The notes under the pieces were generated by a model that did not search any database, was not told the DNA's origin, and saw only the letters and a list, made by a program, of their open reading frames with translations. A DNA stretch of 64,000 nucleotides from an uncultured Alphaproteobacteria bacterium (GTDB lineage Bacteria; Pseudomonadota; Alphaproteobacteria; RF32; CAG-239). Made by a program: the position numbers and the translations under genes. Shown piece after piece: positions 1,393-56,138 of this stretch; the stretch's first letter is position 1; every line of letters starts with the position of its first letter. The stretch covers positions 5,041 to 69,040 of the forward strand of contig CALXTU010000004.1 in NCBI GenBank assembly GCA_944391495.1. The letters run 5' to 3'.

Positions 1393-1717
1393 AATTTTGT
1401 CCTCTTTTTAGAACAGAAAGGAATATCAAGGATGATAGGGGAAAAAACAACATTCCGGCAACAGCTGGAAAAATTACAAAGAGCGGGCGAGGAAAAGAGG
1501 CTTAAAGCATTGCAGGCCAAATATCCGAACCCGAATAATATTGATTACGGCAATATGAGCCTGCGCGACGAGTTGCAAACACGTTTTGATTTAGACGAGA
1601 TGAACAATCTCTCAACCAAGCTCGGCGCACCGAGCGGTTTGGCGGTCGGCAATGATAACGGCGCGCCGGTTCAAGACTTGAGCCAACGCCTGTCCGGCAA
1701 CGATACAGAGGCACAAA
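1393..1717. repeat. Repeat Z copy 1, covering the 5' leader and conserved toxin N-terminal domain
   Basis: Near-identical to 2628-2950. The first 33 codons are identical and the next ~60 codons are similar. Confidence 0.8.
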
Positions 1718-2214
1718 ACAGCTTTTATAAGCCTTTATCCAGACCAAATAAAGATAATGCCAATTGTTATATGACATTTGATGGACAAAGTTTAAATCTT
1801 GTAGGCGGCAATCCAACACATCAATACACATTAAATGCGATGTCCGGAAATCCTGATTATCAGGCCAGACAATATCAGTCAAAAAAGTATTTGGGTCCGA
1901 TACCGGAAGGAACATATTATGCCGCGCAAAATCAAAGACAAATAATTGATCCGATAAATGCCGCAGCAGGCATTATAAATGAAGGAAATTGGCGTAAATC
2001 TATCCCCGCATGGGGATTAAGACGAGTTTGGCTGCAGCCAGACATAAACACAAATACTTATGGTCGAAGTGGCTTTTCAATTCACGGAGGTTGGAAAAAA
2101 GGATCGGCAGGTTGCATAGATATTCCATGGCAAACCGGAAAGCTTAGTCGGTATTTAGATGATTGTCAGGATAACGTTCCGGTTTATGTAAAATATACCA
2201 AGGAGAAATGGTGA
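1432..2214 (+). CDS. Polymorphic toxin A: conserved N-terminal domain plus Tlde1/DUF2778-like C-terminal domain
   Basis: Residues 1-95 are shared with the ORF at 2665. The C-terminus carries GPIPEGTYY and GFSIHGGWKKGSAGCID, a His-x10-Cys arrangement like the LD-transpeptidase-fold effector Tlde1. AAGGA ribosome-binding site. Confidence 0.6.
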   Translation: MIGEKTTFRQQLEKLQRAGEEKRLKALQAKYPNPNNIDYGNMSLRDELQTRFDLDEMNNLSTKLGAPSGLAVGNDNGAPVQDLSQRLSGNDTEAQNSFYKPLSRPNKDNANCYMTFDGQSLNLVGGNPTHQYTLNAMSGNPDYQARQYQSKKYLGPIPEGTYYAAQNQRQIIDPINAAAGIINEGNWRKSIPAWGLRRVWLQPDINTNTYGRSGFSIHGGWKKGSAGCIDIPWQTGKLSRYLDDCQDNVPVYVKYTKEKW

Positions 2215-2564
2215 TGAACAAAGCCAAAGTGTATGAAAGGTTGCAGAAAATAAAAACATTTATCAAGCTTTTCAAGTGGTATATCTGTTTTTATATTTTA
2301 TACTTTTTGATATTAGTAAAAGAATATTTTTATCCGCCGGCCAAAGACGATCAAATTTGGGGTGCCCAAGAAACGATGAGCGATTGGAATTACCAGAATC
2401 AAGAGTTGTATCTTGAGTCAATAAAAATAGATATTGGAATTTCAATTTTAATTTTTTTGTTGGCGCTTAGCAATATGCAAAACTATCCGCGAATAGCCAA
2501 ACTGATTTTGCTATATCCATGGTTTATGGCACTATGGAATATAATTGAGTATGAATATATGTAA
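2214..2564 (+). CDS. Putative immunity protein A (N-terminal TM helix), translationally coupled to toxin A
   Basis: ATG 2214 overlaps the toxin stop (TGATG), 8 nt after AGGAG. It is a predicted membrane protein whose last ~29 codons lie inside repeat X. Confidence 0.5.
   Translation: MNKAKVYERLQKIKTFIKLFKWYICFYILYFLILVKEYFYPPAKDDQIWGAQETMSDWNYQNQELYLESIKIDIGISILIFLLALSNMQNYPRIAKLILLYPWFMALWNIIEYEYM
2472..2558. repeat. Repeat X copy 1
   Basis: 87 bp, ~95% identical to 4308-4396. Confidence 0.8.
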
Positions 2565-2574
2565 ATTAATAATC

Positions 2575-2633
2575 ATCCAGGCGGTAACATAAAATAAAAA
2601 CATATTTTGCAAAACAACCATAGATTTAATTTT
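2575..2633. repeat. Repeat Y copy 1
   Basis: 59 bp, similar to 3908-3966 (atccRRgcggtaacataaaat...agatttaatttt). Confidence 0.75.
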
Positions 2634-2950
2634 CCGTTTTTTAGAACAGAAAGGAATATCAAGGATGATAGGGGAAAAAACAACATTCCGGCAACAGCTG
2701 GAAAAATTACAAAGAGCGGGCGAGGAAAAGAGGCTTAAAGCATTGCAGGCCAAATATCCGAACCCTGATAATATTGACTACGGCAATATGAGCCTGCGCA
2801 ATGAATTGCAGACGCGCTTTGATCTGAACGAGATGAACAACCTATCCGCCAAACTCGGCACATCAAACGGTTTTACTGTTGGTAATGATAACAGCGCACC
2901 GGTTCAAGACTTGAGCCAACGCCTGTCCGGCAATGACAAAGGAACACAAA
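2628..2950. repeat. Repeat Z copy 2
   Basis: See copy 1. Confidence 0.8.
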
Positions 2951-3324
2951 ACGGTTTTTATGCTGCTCTCGGCAAACCGACGCCAAATTACATTCCGAAA
3001 AGCCATATCCTGGAAATAGCTGGTGCCGGCCTGCAAGGTTTCGGTAAAGGAATTGAAAGTGGAATGTTAACGGCGGTTAATGGTGCGACAAACGACTACT
3101 ATAATAAATTAAGTTCAAAATATTTAGGGGATTATTATAACAAGAATCAACGTCAAATTCAGCGGCAAGCGGAGGCGGCAGGCTTAGGTCAAGCCAACCA
3201 GATAGCTAATGATGTCATAGAATACGGTGCAAGTGCCTGGGCAGATACCAAAACCGCCGGTCTTTTATCAAGTAATTTATTTAATCAACCATGGGCGACA
3301 AATTGGTTGAAGAAGTTAAAATAA
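2665..3324 (+). CDS. Polymorphic toxin B: same N-terminal domain, Gly/Asn/Tyr-rich glycine-zipper-like C-terminus
   Basis: The N-terminal ~95 aa are near-identical to toxin A. The C-terminus (AGAGLQGFGKGIESG...) is unrelated to toxin A. Confidence 0.55.
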   Translation: MIGEKTTFRQQLEKLQRAGEEKRLKALQAKYPNPDNIDYGNMSLRNELQTRFDLNEMNNLSAKLGTSNGFTVGNDNSAPVQDLSQRLSGNDKGTQNGFYAALGKPTPNYIPKSHILEIAGAGLQGFGKGIESGMLTAVNGATNDYYNKLSSKYLGDYYNKNQRQIQRQAEAAGLGQANQIANDVIEYGASAWADTKTAGLLSSNLFNQPWATNWLKKLK

Positions 3325-3391
3325 TTTAGTAAACAAATAAGAGGCAGATATTGATTAACGATGTCTGCCTCAACAAATAAAGGAAACACTA

Positions 3392-3925
3392 ATGCCCTAT
3401 CCAGATAAACAAGCAATATTCAGCCGCATAAAAGAACTTTTGTTGCACTATGTTTTTTCATTCAAGGGTTTTGCAAACGGCTTGCAATTTGGTATAGCCA
3501 CTTCAATAGCATTTATATCTAATGATATTTTAAGCAAGTTGGATGTTTCTTTAACAATACGCAATTTTATTTATGGCTATATAATGCTGGTCGCATTTCA
3601 AAAAAGATGTCGGGATATCAACATCAAAGGGACATTAATAATAATTTTTATAACACTTGCTTTCTTTTATGTGGCAATATTTGAAGCACTTAAGCTTGAT
3701 ATGTATGGTTATTTGGATACAATATCAAAATTTTTCCTTCACGCATATGCATTTCTTGTTCTGACCATGATGATTTTACCATCATCACAAATCAAAAATG
3801 CCGAATTGACCAGCCCGTTGTTAAAATACCCGTATTTATACGTGTTAGTGTGTATTGGCATATGCCTTTGGGGTATATCCGTGGTATCAGAACATCAAGA
3901 TGAAATTATCCGAGCGGTAACATAA
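3392..3925 (+). CDS. Putative immunity protein B (polytopic membrane protein)
   Basis: 177 aa with 4-5 hydrophobic helices and an AAAGGA ribosome-binding site. It lies directly downstream of toxin B, and its 3' end runs into repeat Y. Confidence 0.45.
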   Translation: MPYPDKQAIFSRIKELLLHYVFSFKGFANGLQFGIATSIAFISNDILSKLDVSLTIRNFIYGYIMLVAFQKRCRDINIKGTLIIIFITLAFFYVAIFEALKLDMYGYLDTISKFFLHAYAFLVLTMMILPSSQIKNAELTSPLLKYPYLYVLVCIGICLWGISVVSEHQDEIIRAVT

Positions 3926-3966
3926 AATGAAAACATATTTTACGAGGCAACCAAAGATTTAATTTT
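3908..3966. repeat. Repeat Y copy 2
   Basis: See copy 1. Confidence 0.75.
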
Positions 3967-4018: not shown

Positions 4019-4294
4019 ATGATAAGTATTAACCCCCAAAAAATAACACAATATCTGCGGAAGGCAATTAAAATGGCAAGCCTTGTTATCGGACTGACCA
4101 TAATAGCCATAATCTGCTATATTATAGGTTATTTGCTAACAGATAAGGAGGGATGGTGTTTAAGTGAAGGACATGGTGTTTGGGATGCCGACAGACAAGA
4201 ATGCAGGCAAGATTGTCTGACTTGGCGTAAAGATATCGGTTGTGTTCCGATAACTGAAGAGAATATCAGAAAAAAAGAAAAAGGATTATTATAA
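4019..4294 (+). CDS. Small TM plus 4-Cys protein (possible orphan immunity protein)
   Basis: 91 aa with one TM helix and a Cys-rich tail. It sits between repeat Y copy 2 and repeat X copy 2. Confidence 0.3.
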   Translation: MISINPQKITQYLRKAIKMASLVIGLTIIAIICYIIGYLLTDKEGWCLSEGHGVWDADRQECRQDCLTWRKDIGCVPITEENIRKKEKGLL

Positions 4295-4307: not shown

Positions 4308-4396
4308 AATATGCAAAACTATCCGCGATTGGCCAAACTGATTTTGCTATATCCATGGTTTATGGCGCTATGGAATATAATTGAGTATGAATATTT
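4308..4396. repeat. Repeat X copy 2 (terminal copy next to hisS)
   Basis: See copy 1. Confidence 0.8.
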
Positions 4397-4432
4397 GCGA
4401 AAGCAGAATGTTAACGGCAGGAAAGGGGCAAA

Positions 4433-5743
4433 TCAGTTTAACAGAACCTCGGCCAGCGCGGCGGCATCAAGGCTTTTTTGCTCTCCGGATGCCATATCTT
4501 TGAGGCTGTAAAGCTTGGTCTTGGCTTCCTCTTCGCCGATGATAATCAGATACGGCACGCCGATTTTGTTGGCATATTCCATTTTCTTTTTGAACTTGCA
4601 TTGCCGATACATAACGTCAACCGGAATATTCTTTTGCCGCAGTTTGCCGGCCAGGCTGACGGCCTCATCGGTGAAAGCGGCGTCTTGCGTGATAATCAGC
4701 GCCTTGTCGGGCGTCAGAACCTTAATTGGCAGCAGATTATTGGCGCGCAACTGGTCAAACAACCGTGTCAGGCCGATAGATATGCCGACGCCGGGAAATT
4801 TCTTGTCCATAAACACCGAAGACAAATTATCATAGCGGCCGCCGGAACAAACCGAGCCGAACTGCGGATATTCGTCAAAAAAGGTCTCATAAACCGTGCC
4901 GGTATAATAGTCCAACCCGCGGGTGATACTCAGATCAATCTGCATATTAGTCGCCGGCAGTCCGAGGTTTTGCGCCTGCGAAACAACCGTCTTGAGCTCG
5001 TTCAGGCCTTCGGCAAACACACCGTCTTTAATGTCAAAACCTTCAAGTTTTGCTATAATTTGCTCGTTTGAACCGTTGATTTTGATAAAATCAAGCAATC
5101 TTTGCCGTTGCGCTTCTTCCAGTCCCAAATCATTGAGCTCGCCCAAAAAGGCCTCTTCGGGAATTTTTTTGATTTTATCAACCAGCCGCAAGACGTCGAC
5201 CGTTTTGTCGGCAATGCCGAGATATTCCAAAAAGCCGCTCAAAAGCTTACGGTTGTTGATATAGATTTTAAAAGCCGGCAGCTCCAGCTTGCTGAATACC
5301 GTATAAATCACCGCCAGAACTTCCGCGTCATAAATAATATTCAGCTCGTCGCGGTCGATAATGTCGATATCGCATTGATAAAATTCGCGGAACCGGCCTT
5401 TTTGCGGGCGTTCGCCGCGGTATACCTTGCCGATTTGATAACGTTTGAACGGAAAGGTCAGTTCATTGTTATAGAGCGCGACATATTTGGCCAGCGGCAC
5501 CGTCAGGTCAAAACGCATGGCAATATCGGTGTCACCTTTTTTAAACTCGTAAATTTGTTTTTCCGTCTCGCCGCCGGATTTTGAGAGCAAAACTTCCGCC
5601 AGCTCCAACACCGGCGTATCAAGCGGCGCAAATCCGAATAATTCGTAAGTATGGGCAATGACGGCTTTCATGTGATTAAAAACAAGTTGCTCCTGCGGCA
5701 AAAGTTCCATAAACCCCTGTAACGTACGTGCGGTCATTGTCAT
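4433..5743 (-). CDS. hisS: Histidine--tRNA ligase
   Basis: Class II aaRS motifs are present. The start is taken at the internal Met (MTMTARTLQGF) after GGAGA; the longer ORF upstream has no similarity. Confidence 0.9.
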   Translation of the reverse strand: MTMTARTLQGFMELLPQEQLVFNHMKAVIAHTYELFGFAPLDTPVLELAEVLLSKSGGETEKQIYEFKKGDTDIAMRFDLTVPLAKYVALYNNELTFPFKRYQIGKVYRGERPQKGRFREFYQCDIDIIDRDELNIIYDAEVLAVIYTVFSKLELPAFKIYINNRKLLSGFLEYLGIADKTVDVLRLVDKIKKIPEEAFLGELNDLGLEEAQRQRLLDFIKINGSNEQIIAKLEGFDIKDGVFAEGLNELKTVVSQAQNLGLPATNMQIDLSITRGLDYYTGTVYETFFDEYPQFGSVCSGGRYDNLSSVFMDKKFPGVGISIGLTRLFDQLRANNLLPIKVLTPDKALIITQDAAFTDEAVSLAGKLRQKNIPVDVMYRQCKFKKKMEYANKIGVPYLIIIGEEEAKTKLYSLKDMASGEQKSLDAAALAEVLLN

Positions 5744-5879
5744 ATCTCCGTTAAAATTAAATTCAGACAAACTTAAAATTACAGCCATTTTAACACTTCT
5801 GTCAAGCAGCTTATGCCGAAACTTTAAGTTTTTAAAACAAAAAACTCCCCGGCCTTTCACAAGACGGGGAGAAAAATTT

Positions 5880-12392: not shown

Positions 12393-13019
12393 GTGAAAAA
12401 GAGGGAAATAATGGTTTTAGAAAATAAGTTAAATATCACCAATCAATTAGAGTTGAATAAAATAGAAGAAAAGCTTAGTAAAGAAAAAGCTAAAAAACTT
12501 TTTGACAGTGGTAAAATAAATACTCTTAGAGTCGGTACTTTTGCCGGATTGAAGCAGATTCACAAATTTTTATTTGAAGATATTTATGATTTTGCCGGAA
12601 AAATACGGACTGTTAATCTTTCTAAAGGAAATTTTAGATTTGCGCCGGTTATGTACTTAGAGCAAGCCTTAAAACATATAGATAAAATGCCCCAATCAAC
12701 CTTTGATGAAATTGTTGAAAAATATGTTGAAATGAATATAGCTCATCCTTTTAGAGAAGGAAATGGTCGCGCTACCCGAATTTGGCTGGATTTAATCTTC
12801 AAAAAAGAACTAAAAATGGTGGTTGATTGGAATAAAATTGATAAATCCGACTATCTGTCCGCTATGGAAAGAAGCCCAATTAAAGATATTGAAATAAAAC
12901 ATCTCTTAAAAAATGCCCTTACTGATAGAATTAATGAAAGAGAAGTATTCATGAAAGGAATTGATGTTAGTTATTATTACGAAGGCTATGATGAATACGA
13001 CATCCATAAGCTGATGTAA
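12393..13019 (+). CDS. fic: Fic/Doc family protein (AMPylator-type)
   Basis: Canonical HPFREGNGR Fic motif. Size and layout resemble E. coli Fic. An alternative start exists at 12411. Confidence 0.85.
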
Positions 13020-32221: not shown

Positions 32222-32629
32222 TTGCCAAAAAGAGGAGGCCTTAAGATGATAGCAGAGAAAAAAACATCTGTGTTGAGCCGGCTTAAAAATATCGTAGCCA
32301 AAACAAAACGCCGTCTTTCGTGGCGCGGCCGGGTAAAAGATGAAAATGTTTCGGCGCTTGATGCCGCCGATATCCAGCGTCAGGCATACAAACACAATCA
32401 GAATGTCCGCCACACGACCTACACGCCGCCGTATCTGGAACTGGCCGCCCAGCTGCTGGTTGACGAGGATCAAATCTTTCGTGCCGCCGCCAGCCATTTG
32501 ACGCTGATAGCCAAGTCGCGCCGCAAATACGCACCGGAAATCAAAGCCGTCTTTGCCGAGGTAATTGCCGGCCGCAAGCTTTCGCCGGAAAAAATCGCCT
32601 ATTTGAGTAAAAAGCTGGAAGAAATTTAA
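32222..32629 (+). CDS. Hypothetical basic protein
   Basis: 135-aa ORF preceded by AAGAGGAGG. Confidence 0.4.
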   Translation: MPKRGGLKMIAEKKTSVLSRLKNIVAKTKRRLSWRGRVKDENVSALDAADIQRQAYKHNQNVRHTTYTPPYLELAAQLLVDEDQIFRAAASHLTLIAKSRRKYAPEIKAVFAEVIAGRKLSPEKIAYLSKKLEEI

Positions 32630-32701
32630 TCAAGAGCAAATGATGTCAAAAGTTTTTCAGTTTTTTTAGCAATCAGCGGCGGCGGATTTATAGTCAGTTT
32701 T

Positions 32702-33073
32702 TTGCCGGGATTATTACATCCGGCATTGGGTTTATTGTTAAGCGCCGTAATAACGGTCATTTGCCTTATATATGTGCTCATAAAACATTCTTCGGTTACA
32801 TCAATTCTGAAGTCCTGGCGGAAACGGGCGCCGGGGCTCGTTTTAATCTGTCAGACATTTGGCAGCTATTGGCTGTTTTTTCTGCTGTTTATATTGATTT
32901 TGATGATGTTGGCAGCCTGTGGTATAAATATTGATAAGTTTGATAAGTCCATATCATCGGTTATTAGTACAACATTCGGCTGTTTATTAATGGTTAGAAA
33001 TCGTTTTAATCTTGTGGCAGAAGAAAATCAGAGCCTTATGGTCGCGATCTCGCCGACCTTGATAGCTAAATAG
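32702..33073 (+). CDS. Small predicted membrane protein
   Basis: 123 aa with 3 hydrophobic helices. Confidence 0.35.
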   Translation: MPGLLHPALGLLLSAVITVICLIYVLIKHSSVTSILKSWRKRAPGLVLICQTFGSYWLFFLLFILILMMLAACGINIDKFDKSISSVISTTFGCLLMVRNRFNLVAEENQSLMVAISPTLIAK

Positions 33074-33159
33074 CGCCGCACTTGACAGCAGTCAAGGTGA
33101 TGACTATGCTAACCGAATAGGACGTCTTTTAGATTCCAAATATCCTCAAGGAGATTGCG

Positions 33160-33372
33160 ATGTTCTCATTCAAAAATACATTAAGAAAAAGTGGTAAATA
33201 TCTGATGTATGCGATATTGTATTTTCTATCCTTGAGTGTTATCGGCATGGCCGCCGGCATATCATTTTTTCTGGCTGCTGAACATAGCTACAAGATTGAA
33301 ACAACCGACATAATTAAGGATTGCATAGCGCAAGGGGTGAGCGAACAAATCTGCAAAGACAGGGTATATTAA
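33160..33372 (+). CDS. Small predicted membrane protein
   Basis: 70 aa with 1 TM and a Cys pair. Preceded by AAGGAG. Confidence 0.35.
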   Translation: MFSFKNTLRKSGKYLMYAILYFLSLSVIGMAAGISFFLAAEHSYKIETTDIIKDCIAQGVSEQICKDRVY

Positions 33373-33387
33373 AACAAAAGAGTCGTT

Positions 33388-33813
33388 ATGATAAAGTTTT
33401 TGGATAATTTGTTGCTGTTTTGCGGACTTTACGGATTGATATTTGGCTGTTTGCTTTATATCAATGAATTGCTGACAATGATTTTTATTGTCCTTTGCGT
33501 TTTGGTTGCTCCTGTGCTGCTGACTATCCGCCGCCGTCAAACAAGTGTTTGGGGACAAAATTTTAGTTCTGGTCATCCGAACACGGCGCCTTTGTTAAAG
33601 ATTATCGGCGCCTATTGTATTTATGTTTTAGTGTCTTTGGTCATAAAAATAACACGCAATCTCAACAACTGGGCCGTTGAACCGGAAACTTCGGCAGAAC
33701 AAACAATAAGCCTGATGCTGGTAGCGGCGGCTTTGTCAATAACAGCACTGTGGCGAATATATAAGACCATATGCGTCGGGCGTATTTGCCAAACAATCAG
33801 TAAAAAACGGTAA
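33388..33813 (+). CDS. Small predicted membrane protein
   Basis: 141 aa with 4 TM helices. Confidence 0.35.
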   Translation: MIKFLDNLLLFCGLYGLIFGCLLYINELLTMIFIVLCVLVAPVLLTIRRRQTSVWGQNFSSGHPNTAPLLKIIGAYCIYVLVSLVIKITRNLNNWAVEPETSAEQTISLMLVAAALSITALWRIYKTICVGRICQTISKKR

Positions 33814-33914
33814 AATACCCTCGTAAATAATTAGAAAAGAGCAGGTTTTGGGGCTTGCTCTTTTTTATCATCTCGGTTAAAATGCAAAGCGCATAATCAC
33901 AAGGAATATCATGT

Positions 33915-34307
33915 ATGTCGGAATCCAAACTTTCTCCTCACATTAAAAATTGTTTATCCAAAGGTTTTAATATCGTCAAAATCATCGGCAATATCTGTGC
34001 TTTTGTGCTGTTATGTTTTTTGAGTGTTCTTTTGGTGTACACAATTTTAGAGGGAATCATCAATTATGATGAGGATTTTGATATCGGCAAAGCAACAATC
34101 GTATCAAAATGGGTTATATTGCCGCTGTACGGTCTCCTTGCACTGATAACTTGCGGCATGCTGGTTAAGACGGCATCGCGACTGTTAAAGCCCTGGAAAC
34201 TGGTTTGGCATATTCTTTATTGGTTGTTGCCTTTTGCTGTTTTGTTACTGATGATATGGTTTATGGGCATATCCCTTAAGCTGTCGACGGCGTTGTCTCT
34301 TTCATAA
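33915..34307 (+). CDS. Small predicted membrane protein
   Basis: 130 aa with 4 TM helices. Confidence 0.35.
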   Translation: MSESKLSPHIKNCLSKGFNIVKIIGNICAFVLLCFLSVLLVYTILEGIINYDEDFDIGKATIVSKWVILPLYGLLALITCGMLVKTASRLLKPWKLVWHILYWLLPFAVLLLMIWFMGISLKLSTALSLS

Positions 34308-54515: not shown

Positions 54516-56138
54516 ATGGATCATAAACAATTTCTTCTGGATGAATACAAAAGAGAACGTCAAGAACCGGCATATTTCTCTTTGCCGGACGGGGAGAGTG
54601 TGCTTATGCCCTGCGTCTACCACGGCGATAAAGACGCATTTGTTGATGACTGGCTGTCTTTTCAGAATGAAGAACTGCAGAAATATGATACTCACAATGC
54701 CGCCAACCCGGACAATCCCATAGAAATTCCCGAGCCGTTGAAATATGACGACCTTTATATTTTCCCGCCGTTAAAAGGAGTCCTTAAAAACTGGTCGGAG
54801 CAAAAGATTATCAACAAAGCACTGCGCACGGCCATGCGTAAATACAAAGCGGCAATAAAACAGACGGCGCAAGTTGCCAAAATATATCCGAAAGATGATT
54901 TTATTACCAGTCTGAACAAGGATGCCGTTTCCAGATTAAAAAAACTGCATAACGACTATAAAAAAGAAAAATTAAAACAAAACCTGGCCAGGACTTTCAA
55001 ATTCACGGCTAAACAAACGGCCAATATTCTGGCCGGTGCAACCGGAGCTCTGCCGGCCGCCGCATATTATCTGTTGGATAAAAAAGTGCGCTTTGCCAAA
55101 AGCAAAACCAAGAGTTTTATTGATAATACAGCTTTGCCGTATATTCGCAGAGGTGTTGCAAAGTTCCTGGTCTTGGTATGTCTTACGGGAGCAGTCAACT
55201 TAACGTCTGTCATCAAAGAAAAGCATCAGGACAAAATTGAGCAGCAAATGCTTCAAGCCCGTGAGCAAGCTGAAAAAGAAGCCTTTTTTGCCAAATATCA
55301 AACCACTAACGAGGCCTTTTATAAAAATTATAAACAGGCCAAAAACTTAGAGCAGGAATTTATCTGTCTGTTGTCCTGTTATGAAGATTATCATGAACAG
55401 GCTTATAAATGCCAGGCCGGCAAATGGACCGTCGGCTACGGATCACGGCAGTTGGCTGATGGTACGCCTGTTGTTAAAGGAACCACCGTCACCCGGAAAG
55501 ACGCCGCGGCGGCCGTTACCAAGCATATGGAAAAATACGTCTATCCTCAGCTTTGTCATATTAATAAAGAACTTTCGCCGGAACAGCTGATGGCTGTCAA
55601 TATGTTTATCTACAACACGGACGAAAACGCTTTCCGAAATTCAAAAGTCTGCCGTGCCATTAACGACAATGCCGATGAAACCAAAATGCGGGAGGCCTTT
55701 TCTTACTATCGCAGCGTTAACGGCAAGCGCAGTTACGGTCTGATCAACCGTCGCGGTTTTGAAGGCTATTTATGGAGCTGCGGCAATCTGGCCGATGTTT
55801 TGCTGATGAGCCCCAATCTGGCCGGCAGTCAGGATATCCGCTATTTCGAATATCCAGATACCGATAGTCGCAATCCGCATGAAAATCCGGACGAAACTTT
55901 TGTCGTGCGGCAAAAAGATGAAGTAAAACGGGATTTGAAAAAATTTAAAGTTTCCAATCTTTCGCAGAGCATCTTAGGCAATACCACACCGGAAATTTGT
56001 GATAATTTGTGTGATAAATACGGAATTTATGAAGAAAACAATCAAATCAAACAACTGCAGGTTATCACGGTCGATAATTCTCAAACCGGCAAGGCCATTA
56101 CTTTTGCTCAGGCTCAAAGGTTAAAGGAAAGTCGTTAA
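54516..56138 (+). CDS. Multidomain protein with an internal T4-lysozyme-like (GH24) domain
   Basis: E-x8-C-x5-T spacing (YEDYHEQAYKCQAGKWTVGYGS) and a downstream GH24-like helix (SPEQLMAVNMFIYN). No signal peptide. The N-terminal ~290 aa have no recognisable similarity. Confidence 0.5.
   Translation: MDHKQFLLDEYKRERQEPAYFSLPDGESVLMPCVYHGDKDAFVDDWLSFQNEELQKYDTHNAANPDNPIEIPEPLKYDDLYIFPPLKGVLKNWSEQKIINKALRTAMRKYKAAIKQTAQVAKIYPKDDFITSLNKDAVSRLKKLHNDYKKEKLKQNLARTFKFTAKQTANILAGATGALPAAAYYLLDKKVRFAKSKTKSFIDNTALPYIRRGVAKFLVLVCLTGAVNLTSVIKEKHQDKIEQQMLQAREQAEKEAFFAKYQTTNEAFYKNYKQAKNLEQEFICLLSCYEDYHEQAYKCQAGKWTVGYGSRQLADGTPVVKGTTVTRKDAAAAVTKHMEKYVYPQLCHINKELSPEQLMAVNMFIYNTDENAFRNSKVCRAINDNADETKMREAFSYYRSVNGKRSYGLINRRGFEGYLWSCGNLADVLLMSPNLAGSQDIRYFEYPDTDSRNPHENPDETFVVRQKDEVKRDLKKFKVSNLSQSILGNTTPEICDNLCDKYGIYEENNQIKQLQVITVDNSQTGKAITFAQAQRLKESR

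Follow-up and report, generated by a model that had tools for sequence, protein, structure and literature searches.

What does a small glycine- and alanine-rich protein do to its target when the next gene encodes a protein that crosses the membrane several times? This question is raised by a locus in a 64-kb stretch of DNA (hereafter the window, meaning the whole stretch analyzed) labelled as coming from an uncultured alphaproteobacterium, in which a candidate toxin, that we call toxin B, is followed by a membrane protein, that we call immunity B. An initial annotation of this DNA had proposed that the two form a pore-forming or membrane-depolarizing toxin of the glycine-zipper kind and its immunity protein. 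It had placed the two open reading frames (ORFs) at 2665-3324 and 3392-3925, with 219 and 177 aa, and both placements are right; the glycine-rich peptide that it quoted, AGAGLQGFGKGIESGMLTAVNGA, corresponds to residues 119-141 of toxin B (nucleotides 3019-3087). Coordinates are given in the numbering of the window, and residue numbers are those of toxin B except where the partner is named. The two genes and the parts of toxin B are as follows.

2665-3324, plus strand: toxin B, 219 aa, of which an exact copy is found in gut metagenomes (cluster P0001)
2665-2853, plus strand: N-terminal helical hairpin, residues 1-63, with helices 3-30 and 44-63 (pLDDT, the predicted local distance difference test of AlphaFold2, 94-97)
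2854-2979, plus strand: low-complexity Gly/Asn/Ser/Gln linker, residues 64-105 (pLDDT <60), ending in ...FYAALGKPTP
2980-3321, plus strand: C-terminal toxin module, residues 106-219, five predicted helices
3007-3087, plus strand: glycine-zipper helix, residues 115-141, with the conserved G125xxxG129xxxG133
3262-3321, plus strand: Trp-rich cationic tail, last 20 residues
3392-3925, plus strand: immunity B, 177 aa, DUF805-like five-helix inner-membrane protein with the motifs FSFKG, QKRCRD and SPLLKYP

A candidate toxin and its membrane partner

A gene of the immunity B family (immB) is the next gene after the toxin that carries the module in all eight loci examined (the window, L003, L006, two cassettes in L024, L033, L035 and L036), behind toxins with several different N-termini, and the partner signature (Q/E)KRCRD...PLLK(Y/H/R)P is found downstream in every one of them. 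The pairwise identities of module and partner correlate (Mantel r 0.81, exact p 0.002, 7 pairs), a signal driven largely by the comparison of the window with L003 and to which L006-L033 and L024a-L036 also contribute. Most members of the immB family are 25-38% identical to each other, and extra orphan copies are present in L003, L006, L024 and L036. The window itself displays the traits of a polymorphic-toxin locus: an N-terminus shared between toxins, a downstream gene that co-varies with the toxin, and orphan or displaced fragments (4019-4294, 4308-4427 and 3904-3966). Such a genomic context argues strongly that toxin B and the product of 3392-3925 are a cognate toxin-immunity pair, and the membrane as the site of action is likewise well supported. 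Channel-forming effectors are nearly always neutralized by polytopic membrane proteins (PMC12744356), a rule that the pairing described here fits.

The AlphaFold2 model of immunity B (pLDDT 84, predicted template modelling score, pTM, 0.78) consists of an amphipathic N-terminal helix followed by five hydrophobic helices, at partner residues 30-49, 54-76, 81-98, 106-128 and 147-167, three of them strongly and two moderately hydrophobic; the four to five transmembrane (TM) helices initially suggested can thus be set at five, by both the model and hydropathy. In the family, for which we collected 12 relatives, the motifs QKRCRD and L-x-x-P-L-L are invariant and FSFxG is near-invariant, while variability is greatest in helix 1, in the short loops and at the C-terminus. 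The most conserved loops, at partner residues 69-80 and 129-146, are rich in Lys and Arg and probably cytoplasmic, by the positive-inside rule. In Pfam, DUF805 (PF05656) is the best or only recurring match in 10/10 aligned members (best E 1.1e-4), and the protein of the window scores 11.5 bits, under the gathering threshold of 25.7. On these profile scores, we regard immunity B as a distant relative of DUF805 rather than as a member. Compared with DUF805, it has an extra C-terminal helix and the conserved SPLLKYP loop, while the order of its motifs, with FSFxG near the N-terminus and a basic xKRxxD loop after the second helix, is what we take to be the order in DUF805 proteins. A full-text literature search returned no link between DUF805 and toxin immunity.

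The C-terminal module and how it may act

Relatives of toxin B at E <= 1e-3 number 21 among 5.8 billion protein clusters and are all metagenomic, and the cluster members that bear a name are called 'hypothetical protein [Azospirillum sp.]'. A scan of one genome per species gave 20 loci, all of them in uncultured gut Alphaproteobacteria or in 'Azospirillaceae' metagenome-assembled genomes (MAGs), so that this polymorphic-toxin family appears, as far as found, to be confined to uncultured gut Alphaproteobacteria. For the module, we built an alignment of the toxin-B C-terminus and its diverged versions in L003, L006 and L011, and the resulting profile served for a new search. An exhaustive hmmsearch among 1.84 billion representative proteins gave 89 matches at E <= 1e-3, about 70 of which are proteins of 100-250 aa that carry the module at their extreme C-terminus behind several unrelated N-termini. 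By this distribution, the module behaves as a mobile unit attached to different N-terminal parts.

Conservation was assessed across 72 non-redundant homologues of the module. The zipper glycines G125, G129 and G133 rank with the best-conserved columns (Gly in 60, 67 and 59 of the 72) and form with G127 a GxGxGxxxG that contains the GxxxGxxxG, while small residues are frequent, if less conserved, at positions 121, 137 and 141. The helix thus carries a conserved (G/A/S)xxxGxxxG, as depolarizing zipper toxins do. Further conserved columns are N139, T142, G144, Y146, Y158, R161-Q162, L165-Q166 and A169, followed by G173-L-G175, A181-N182 and I185-D186; near-invariance is confined to glycines, and there is no conserved His, Cys, Ser or Lys column in this set. 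The clade of toxin B replaces the otherwise conserved E135, R136, G144 and R161, and two subfamilies have the acidic residue one helical turn earlier (GIE(S/N)G...). The C-terminal 115 residues of toxin B include 12 Gly and 14 Ala, and AlphaFold2 places helices at 115-141, 145-153, 157-171, 175-200 and 209-218. The first of these, the zipper helix, is amphipathic (hydrophobic moment, muH, 0.47; mean hydrophobicity, H, 0.38), which bears out, weakly, the amphipathic stretches that had been described. In 59 unique tails, the net charge of the last 20 residues averages +3.6, compared with -1.6 for the rest of the module.

The initial annotation recognized no known toxin family in this C-terminus, and our searches agree with it: neither an enzymatic nor any other family was matched in Pfam, NCBIfam, PHROGs or PADLOC, a sequence search of the PDB with the module profile gave chance-level matches or none, and Foldseek against the PDB returned nothing at E < 1 for either model. 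These searches and the conserved columns bear on the idea that the module works as a small periplasmic enzyme, or that it inhibits envelope synthesis stoichiometrically, its target being for example lipid II or peptidoglycan, with the partner as its membrane-anchored inhibitor. Cell-wall enzymes are indeed found in sister cassettes (Tlde1 in the window and in L036, Glyco_hydro_108 beside L033), and several polar columns are conserved (N139, Y146, Y158, R161-Q162, N182 and D186). We nevertheless consider this idea quite improbable, given the absence of a match in any of these databases, near-invariant columns that are all glycine, the loss of E135, R136 and R161 in the toxin-B clade, and a 90-residue all-helical module with a disordered-like model, which is atypical of enzymes. 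An enzymatic toxin is in particular disfavored because no catalytic-type column is conserved.

We propose instead that toxin B is a depolarizing or permeabilizing toxin of the inner membrane, that acts from the periplasmic face and that its partner blocks within the bilayer, a reading for which we judge the chances to be evenly balanced. A membrane-active module would fit the small-residue stripe on an amphipathic helix, the cationic Trp tail and the lack of a catalytic signature, as well as the obligatory, co-diverging polytopic partner and the placement of the module, in other proteins, where cargo must cross a membrane. In this model, the hairpin would direct the export of toxin B, and the protein would be delivered to the periplasm of a neighboring Gram-negative cell, a destination suggested by the fact that the same N-terminal domain carries periplasm-acting warheads (Tlde1). 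The cationic Trp-rich tail would dock on the anionic surface of the inner membrane, and the amphipathic zipper helices would oligomerize and insert, leading to ion leakage and to collapse of the membrane potential. Immunity B, residing in the inner membrane, would bind the zipper helices in or at the bilayer via its variable helices and periplasmic loops, thereby blocking assembly. Of the pore-forming pair that had been put forward, the cassette, the membrane partner in 8/8 loci and the zipper core hold, while the pore and the depolarization are what we infer.

Several observations weigh against this model. Hydropathy in 19-residue windows (KD19) predicts no TM segment in toxin B: the maximum is 0.53 in toxin B and at most 1.28 in 67 relatives, and never reaches 1.6. 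The zipper helix contains K128 and E131, and its segment falls short of the bilayer-spanning hydrophobicity of depolarizing toxins. With a pLDDT of 42-67 for the module, the five-helix picture is weak. Zipper spacing in the single sequence is at chance level, since shuffles of toxin B show a strict GxxxGxxxG in 17% and a loose zipper pattern in 50% of cases, and the pattern is also met in the low-complexity linker, at residues 65 and 89; the GxxxG-type spacing noted at first is therefore meaningful because of its conservation across the 72 relatives, which carries its weight, and not as a pattern in one protein. The conserved loops of the partner are uninformative on toxin binding because they are placed in the cytoplasm. 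Moreover, the module is found upstream of ART-PolyVal, PBECR1, SAA and an unassigned ~140-aa domain, which the initial annotation overlooked, and no immB-like gene lies downstream of the protein with module and effector in the single such locus that has downstream sequence, an absence compatible with a carrier rather than a killing role. Finally, there are no secretion-system genes in the 64-kb window, and no genes of a type VI (T6SS), type I (T1SS) or other secretion system recur among the 25 most frequent families of the 84 ORFs flanking 9 related loci.

The proteins in which the module precedes other domains are of two sorts. About 15 matches are long, at 320-954 aa; they carry the module at residues ~40-170 and a Gly/Ala/Ser-rich, moderately hydrophobic stretch (KD19 0.9-1.4) in place of the cationic tail. 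Ten long proteins were scanned: two of them, P0067 and P0108, carry ART-PolyVal (E 8e-22 and 4.5e-16), and two, P0096 and P0133, have weak PBECR2 matches. P0136 (406 aa) has a PBECR1 nuclease behind the module (E 1e-14). Proteins with ART-PolyVal or PBECR domains belong to a 'polyvalent' class, which, in the general account of PMC5512222, is thought to be packaged by phages in the virion and injected into the host. P0077 is encoded in a block of phage structural genes, with genes for collar/YadA-stalk, BppU_N and Gp53-like domains after it and then a lysozyme gene. In tblastn searches of GenBank phages, P0106 matches mainly by its first ~70 residues, to the N-termini of large Vibrio and Shewanella podovirus proteins, and also by residues 300-464, to one human faecal phage record, while its module part has no match; toxin B and P0077 found no match in the same phages, and no locus was confirmed in scans of viral contigs that used the module profile and P0077. 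Among toxin-like proteins, P0091, P0118 and P0137 have an extra domain of ~140 residues behind the module, and P0131 has an SAA domain behind the zipper helix alone.

Such an arrangement suggests that, instead of a dedicated pore toxin, the module may be a membrane-permeabilizing or entry device, toxic when on its own. In the long phage virion-type proteins and in P0136, the same membrane perturbation would carry cargo across the membrane, while alone it would act as a toxin. A more ambitious version, that we hold tentatively and think rather doubtful, is that this is an undescribed 'membrane-breaching' zipper module, used by phages near the front of virion-packaged polyvalent proteins to carry ART or nuclease cargo across the inner membrane of the host and turned into a free-standing interbacterial toxin, with the cationic tail added, by gut Alphaproteobacteria, where it would be exported by a new 63-residue hairpin not linked to a T6SS, a T1SS or a type V secretion system (T5SS), and neutralized by a diverged DUF805 protein.

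The same proteins bear on a further alternative, in which the module would be a docking or entry domain and not a channel, binding, in the inner membrane of the target, a specific protein that may be a housekeeping one of DUF805 type and that it poisons or hijacks, with immunity B as a resistant look-alike that sequesters the toxin. The position of the module ahead of ART-PolyVal, PBECR1, SAA and ~140-aa domains, in phage virion-type and toxin-like proteins alike, would be expected of an entry domain, the immunity family belongs, as a diverged branch, to a widespread membrane-protein superfamily (10/10 match DUF805), toxin B is too polar for a classical TM helix, and entry domains that use membrane-protein receptors such as AcrB and SecY are known from contact-dependent inhibition (CDI) systems (PMC11630599). 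We think it unlikely all the same: ~70/89 members end right at the module, which in those proteins must then itself be what is toxic; conservation of the zipper, together with the cationic tail, speaks of lipid interaction and not of a protein-binding surface; and no candidate receptor was identified.

The cassette island, the shared N-terminus and delivery

The cassette of toxin B and the ORF at 3392-3925 is the second one in a polymorphic-toxin island that is bounded by rplS and hisS and has a GC content of 32-45%, compared with ~50% in the flanks. The other features of the island and its borders are the following.

63-779: trmD
802-1215: rplS
1397-1696: copy 1 of a 300-nt direct repeat, 90% identical to copy 2, covering the leader, the ribosome-binding site and the 5' part of the toxin gene
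1432-2214, plus strand: toxin A, 260 aa, with a Tlde1 domain
2208-2564, plus strand: membrane partner of toxin A, 118 aa, overlapping toxin A, with two hydrophobic segments
2571-2633: copy 1 of a 63-nt cassette-junction repeat, 86% identical to copy 2
2630-2929, plus strand: copy 2 of the 300-nt direct repeat
3341-3371, plus strand: stem-loop of 13 bp between the stop of toxin B and the start of immunity B (-20.9 kcal/mol, z = -6.1)
3904-3966, plus strand: copy 2 of the junction repeat, with no toxin gene after it
4019-4294, plus strand: orphan immunity-like ORF, 91 aa, with a single TM helix and a domain rich in Cys
4308-4427, plus strand: recombination debris at the hisS edge of the island
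4433-5860, minus strand: hisS

The direct repeats document that cassettes are shuffled in this island, and the 300-nt repeat is the substrate of C-terminus swapping. Within the debris, 4308-4397 reproduces the 3' end of the toxin-A partner gene at 96% and 4399-4427 (29 nt) the zipper-coding stretch 3055-3083 of toxin B at 79%. In a related genome, the rplS-hisS site (L004 7998-9051) holds another toxin, with a KIAQPIGNCSMRGF... C-terminus, and another polytopic partner of 170 aa; because of this different content, we view the site as a hotspot of cassette exchange. Stem-loops of unrelated sequence occur at the toxin-immunity junction of four other loci (L003 5083-5160, L006 8610-8664, L024 5942-6003 and L033 4631-4699, with z = -2.2, -6.6, -1.8 and -3.6, respectively). 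No T-run follows the stem-loop in the window or in these four loci, and the stem-loops may set the ratio of toxin to immunity expression or the stability of the transcript.

Two further genes of the island have features of their own. The membrane partner of toxin A (2208-2564) is a candidate immunity protein against Tlde1, which would then be membrane-embedded rather than a soluble periplasmic protein. The family of the ORF at 4019-4294 combines one to several TM helices with a conserved Cys-rich tail (C.DSG.VWDY.EHRCR.DC..W....GC), and its relatives occur as apparently orphan genes in other islands (L003 5738-6178 and 6121-6603, L011 6567-7079); this family probably confers immunity to a type of toxin not encoded in the window.

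That the C-terminus of toxin B is variable, as the initial annotation stated, is borne out by comparison with toxin A, which carries a Tlde1 domain (PF10908 in Pfam, E 3.3e-8). The two toxins are 60% identical overall, near-identical up to residue ~100 and unrelated after ~105, with residues 1 to ~105 in common, and identity of their DNA begins 28 nt upstream of the ATG; the sequence ...FYAALGKPTP at the end of the linker is the recombination boundary. The hairpin bears the signature NMSLR(D/N)ELQTRFDL(D/N)E(M/L)N and precedes at least 8 unrelated C-termini in metagenomes and MAGs, namely Tlde1, the toxin-B module, two SAA-like types, a KIAQSVGNCSMRGF... type, two long Gly-rich types and others. 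As one N-terminus is found on many unrelated C-termini, we read the hairpin as the presumed trafficking domain of this polymorphic-toxin family. A sequence search of the PDB with the N-terminal domain gave chance-level matches or none.

In some assemblies, orthologues of toxin B (L001 10001-10537 and the cluster members P0165, P0166, P0169 and P0175) are called as proteins of 178 or 193 aa that start at an internal Met and have no first hairpin helix. Other C-termini on the same N-terminal family are found in toxins of ~290 aa (L012 417-1286, L016-L018 and L020) and of ~260 aa (L013 and L014); they hold motifs like AALDGLSLGWADELEGAASAVGYG... and GLSGNNFDELAGIAG..., then Y..R(D/N)..R, a layout that resembles the zipper module, and by this resemblance they may be its distant relatives. 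At least 3 different N-terminal trafficking sequences of these gut Alphaproteobacteria bear an SAA-like (serum-amyloid-A-like) domain (PF00277) as their C-terminal warhead (L005 282-929, L015 7983-8711, L023/L024 ~4417-5061 and L033 1911-2603, as well as P0019, P0021 and P0131). An ORF of ~70 aa follows each SAA-like warhead, the one in L024 having one TM helix and several Cys. To our knowledge, no toxin activity has been described for bacterial SAA-like domains.

The hairpin also raises the question of whether toxin B leaves the cell at all. It could instead be an intracellular conflict or abortive-infection effector that is recruited through an EAD-like adaptor, or a domesticated phage module for lysis or superinfection exclusion. 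The N-terminal helix repeatedly matches the Pfam family EAD7 weakly (E 0.004-0.08), the module is shared with phage virion-type proteins, and no secretion system is linked. The EAD7 matches, however, score 13-17 bits, far under the gathering threshold of 32 bits, cover the first 23-40 profile positions only and stem from one shared motif, so that they are not independent; the PADLOC result is empty, and the neighborhood has neither an NTPase nor a sensor partner. We therefore set aside, as unsupported, a death-like adaptor (EAD7) as the identity of the N-terminus. Toxin B shares its N-terminus with a toxin that bears Tlde1, a domain that acts on peptidoglycan in the periplasm (PMC9638812); orphan immunity genes in cassette arrays are a signature of interbacterial polymorphic toxins; and no phage genes are found around the rplS-hisS locus. 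Taken together, these points make such an intracellular effector or phage module very improbable.

The window has the content of an ordinary Gram-negative chromosome, with genes for LpxK, a Kdo-transferase-type (KdtA-type) protein, OmpA, Rnf and fatty-acid synthesis. No vgrG, hcp, PAAR, adaptor or T6SS core gene is present in its 64 kb, and Pfam detects no N-terminal T6SS marker domain (PAAR, MIX, FIX, Rhs and the like) in toxin B or in 76 module proteins. The presence of Tlde1, a known T6SS warhead, on the same N-terminus as toxin B is a suggestive hint, and no more, of a T6SS effector. Elsewhere in the window, a 540-aa protein with a Phage_lysozyme domain (54516-56138) has fatty-acid synthesis genes on one side and dsbD on the other, without phage genes in its vicinity; a run of four small genes (127, 70, 141 and 130 aa) with no Pfam match lies beside recG (~32246-34307, L031 5710-7771) and may form another small accessory island; and a stand-alone Fic-domain protein of 202 aa is encoded downstream of a Mur-ligase-family gene (~12411-13019, L030 5903-6511).

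Relation to known systems and significance

Among the closest parallels are EsxX, TelE and TspA, depolarizing zipper toxins with polytopic immunity proteins and islands of orphan immunity genes (PMC12744356). Like these toxins, whose immunity is ExiCD or TsaI, toxin B joins a helical N-terminal targeting domain to a zipper C-terminal toxin domain, and its locus shares with theirs the polytopic membrane immunity and the orphan immunity genes in arrays (PMC12744356). In contrast, EsxX, TelE and TspA belong to Gram-positive type VIIb secretion systems (T7SSb), whereas the host of toxin B, labelled Alphaproteobacteria, is Gram-negative (LpxK, KdtA-type, OmpA); toxin B is far smaller (219 aa) and has no LXG domain or other Pfam match, and its immunity protein is DUF805-like, not DUF5079 or DUF5080, in a cassette without a soluble cytoplasmic second immunity protein.

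Among alphaproteobacterial systems, the T6SS effector Tde1 of Agrobacterium has an N-terminal zipper that permeabilizes the cytoplasmic membrane of the target and is required for translocation of its DNase (PMC10240207), so that a GxxxG stripe ahead of a nuclease acting in the cytoplasm resembles the module ahead of PBECR1 (P0136) or ART. The zipper of Tde1 is, however, N-terminal and binds Tap1, whereas the module described here is C-terminal, stands alone in most members and has its own membrane immunity, no T6SS genes or adaptor are linked to toxin B, and no homology between the two zippers was detected. CdzC and CdzD of Caulobacter (PMC5380434) are likewise small zipper proteins of an alphaproteobacterial host with a small membrane immunity protein (CdzI). 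Unlike toxin B, which is polar and has 219 aa, they are ~85 aa long, almost wholly hydrophobic, and have a leader and adjacent type I secretion genes, none of which applies here; no genes for ATP-binding cassette (ABC) or membrane fusion (MFP) proteins are adjacent to toxin B.

The ionophore toxins of CDI systems are five-helix bundles with a putative zipper in one helix and polymorphic membrane CdiI proteins of ~30% identity (PMC11630599). Toxin B is similar to them in its small helical toxin domain and in the divergence of its immunity proteins (~30% compared with 25-38% in immB); these ionophores are the tips of huge CdiA proteins, use type V secretion and have bilayer-spanning hydrophobicity, whereas toxin B is free-standing with no predicted TM segment. 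Polyvalent proteins, as outlined in PMC5512222, offer the remaining likeness, since the module lies near the N-terminus of proteins of 500-950 aa, one of them in a phage tail/baseplate block. Term searches of the full text of that paper found no N-terminal glycine-zipper or membrane module, and toxin B differs from the class in being chromosomal, with none of its enzymatic domains and no phage genes around. For homology of the module to characterized depolarizing toxins (EsxX/TelE/TspA, Tse4/Tse5 or the CDI ionophores), the searches covered Pfam, NCBIfam, the PDB by sequence and, with a low-confidence model, Foldseek against the PDB, and gave no match.

A zipper toxin with polytopic immunity in a polymorphic-toxin island is a known kind of system, and its overall logic is established. 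What is new is the sequence family of the module, which has no match in Pfam, NCBIfam, PHROGs, PADLOC or the PDB, together with its occurrence also in phage virion-type proteins, the DUF805-like immunity family, and the N-terminal hairpin domain without a linked secretion system. Current ideas are not overturned by these findings. If the module is membrane-active, it would add a new, sequence-unrelated family to the few known depolarizing zipper toxins, in hosts that are poorly known, uncultured gut Alphaproteobacteria whose MAGs are labelled 'Azospirillum sp.'. It would also bring with it a new N-terminal delivery domain with many warheads, Tlde1 and SAA-like ones included, and would tie interbacterial toxins to the membrane crossing of phage-injected proteins, with a compact domain of ~100 residues for testing this link. 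Toxin immunity would then be a testable role for a branch of the uncharacterized DUF805 superfamily, and, should the 'membrane-breaching' interpretation be true, this would be the first functional context for that superfamily.

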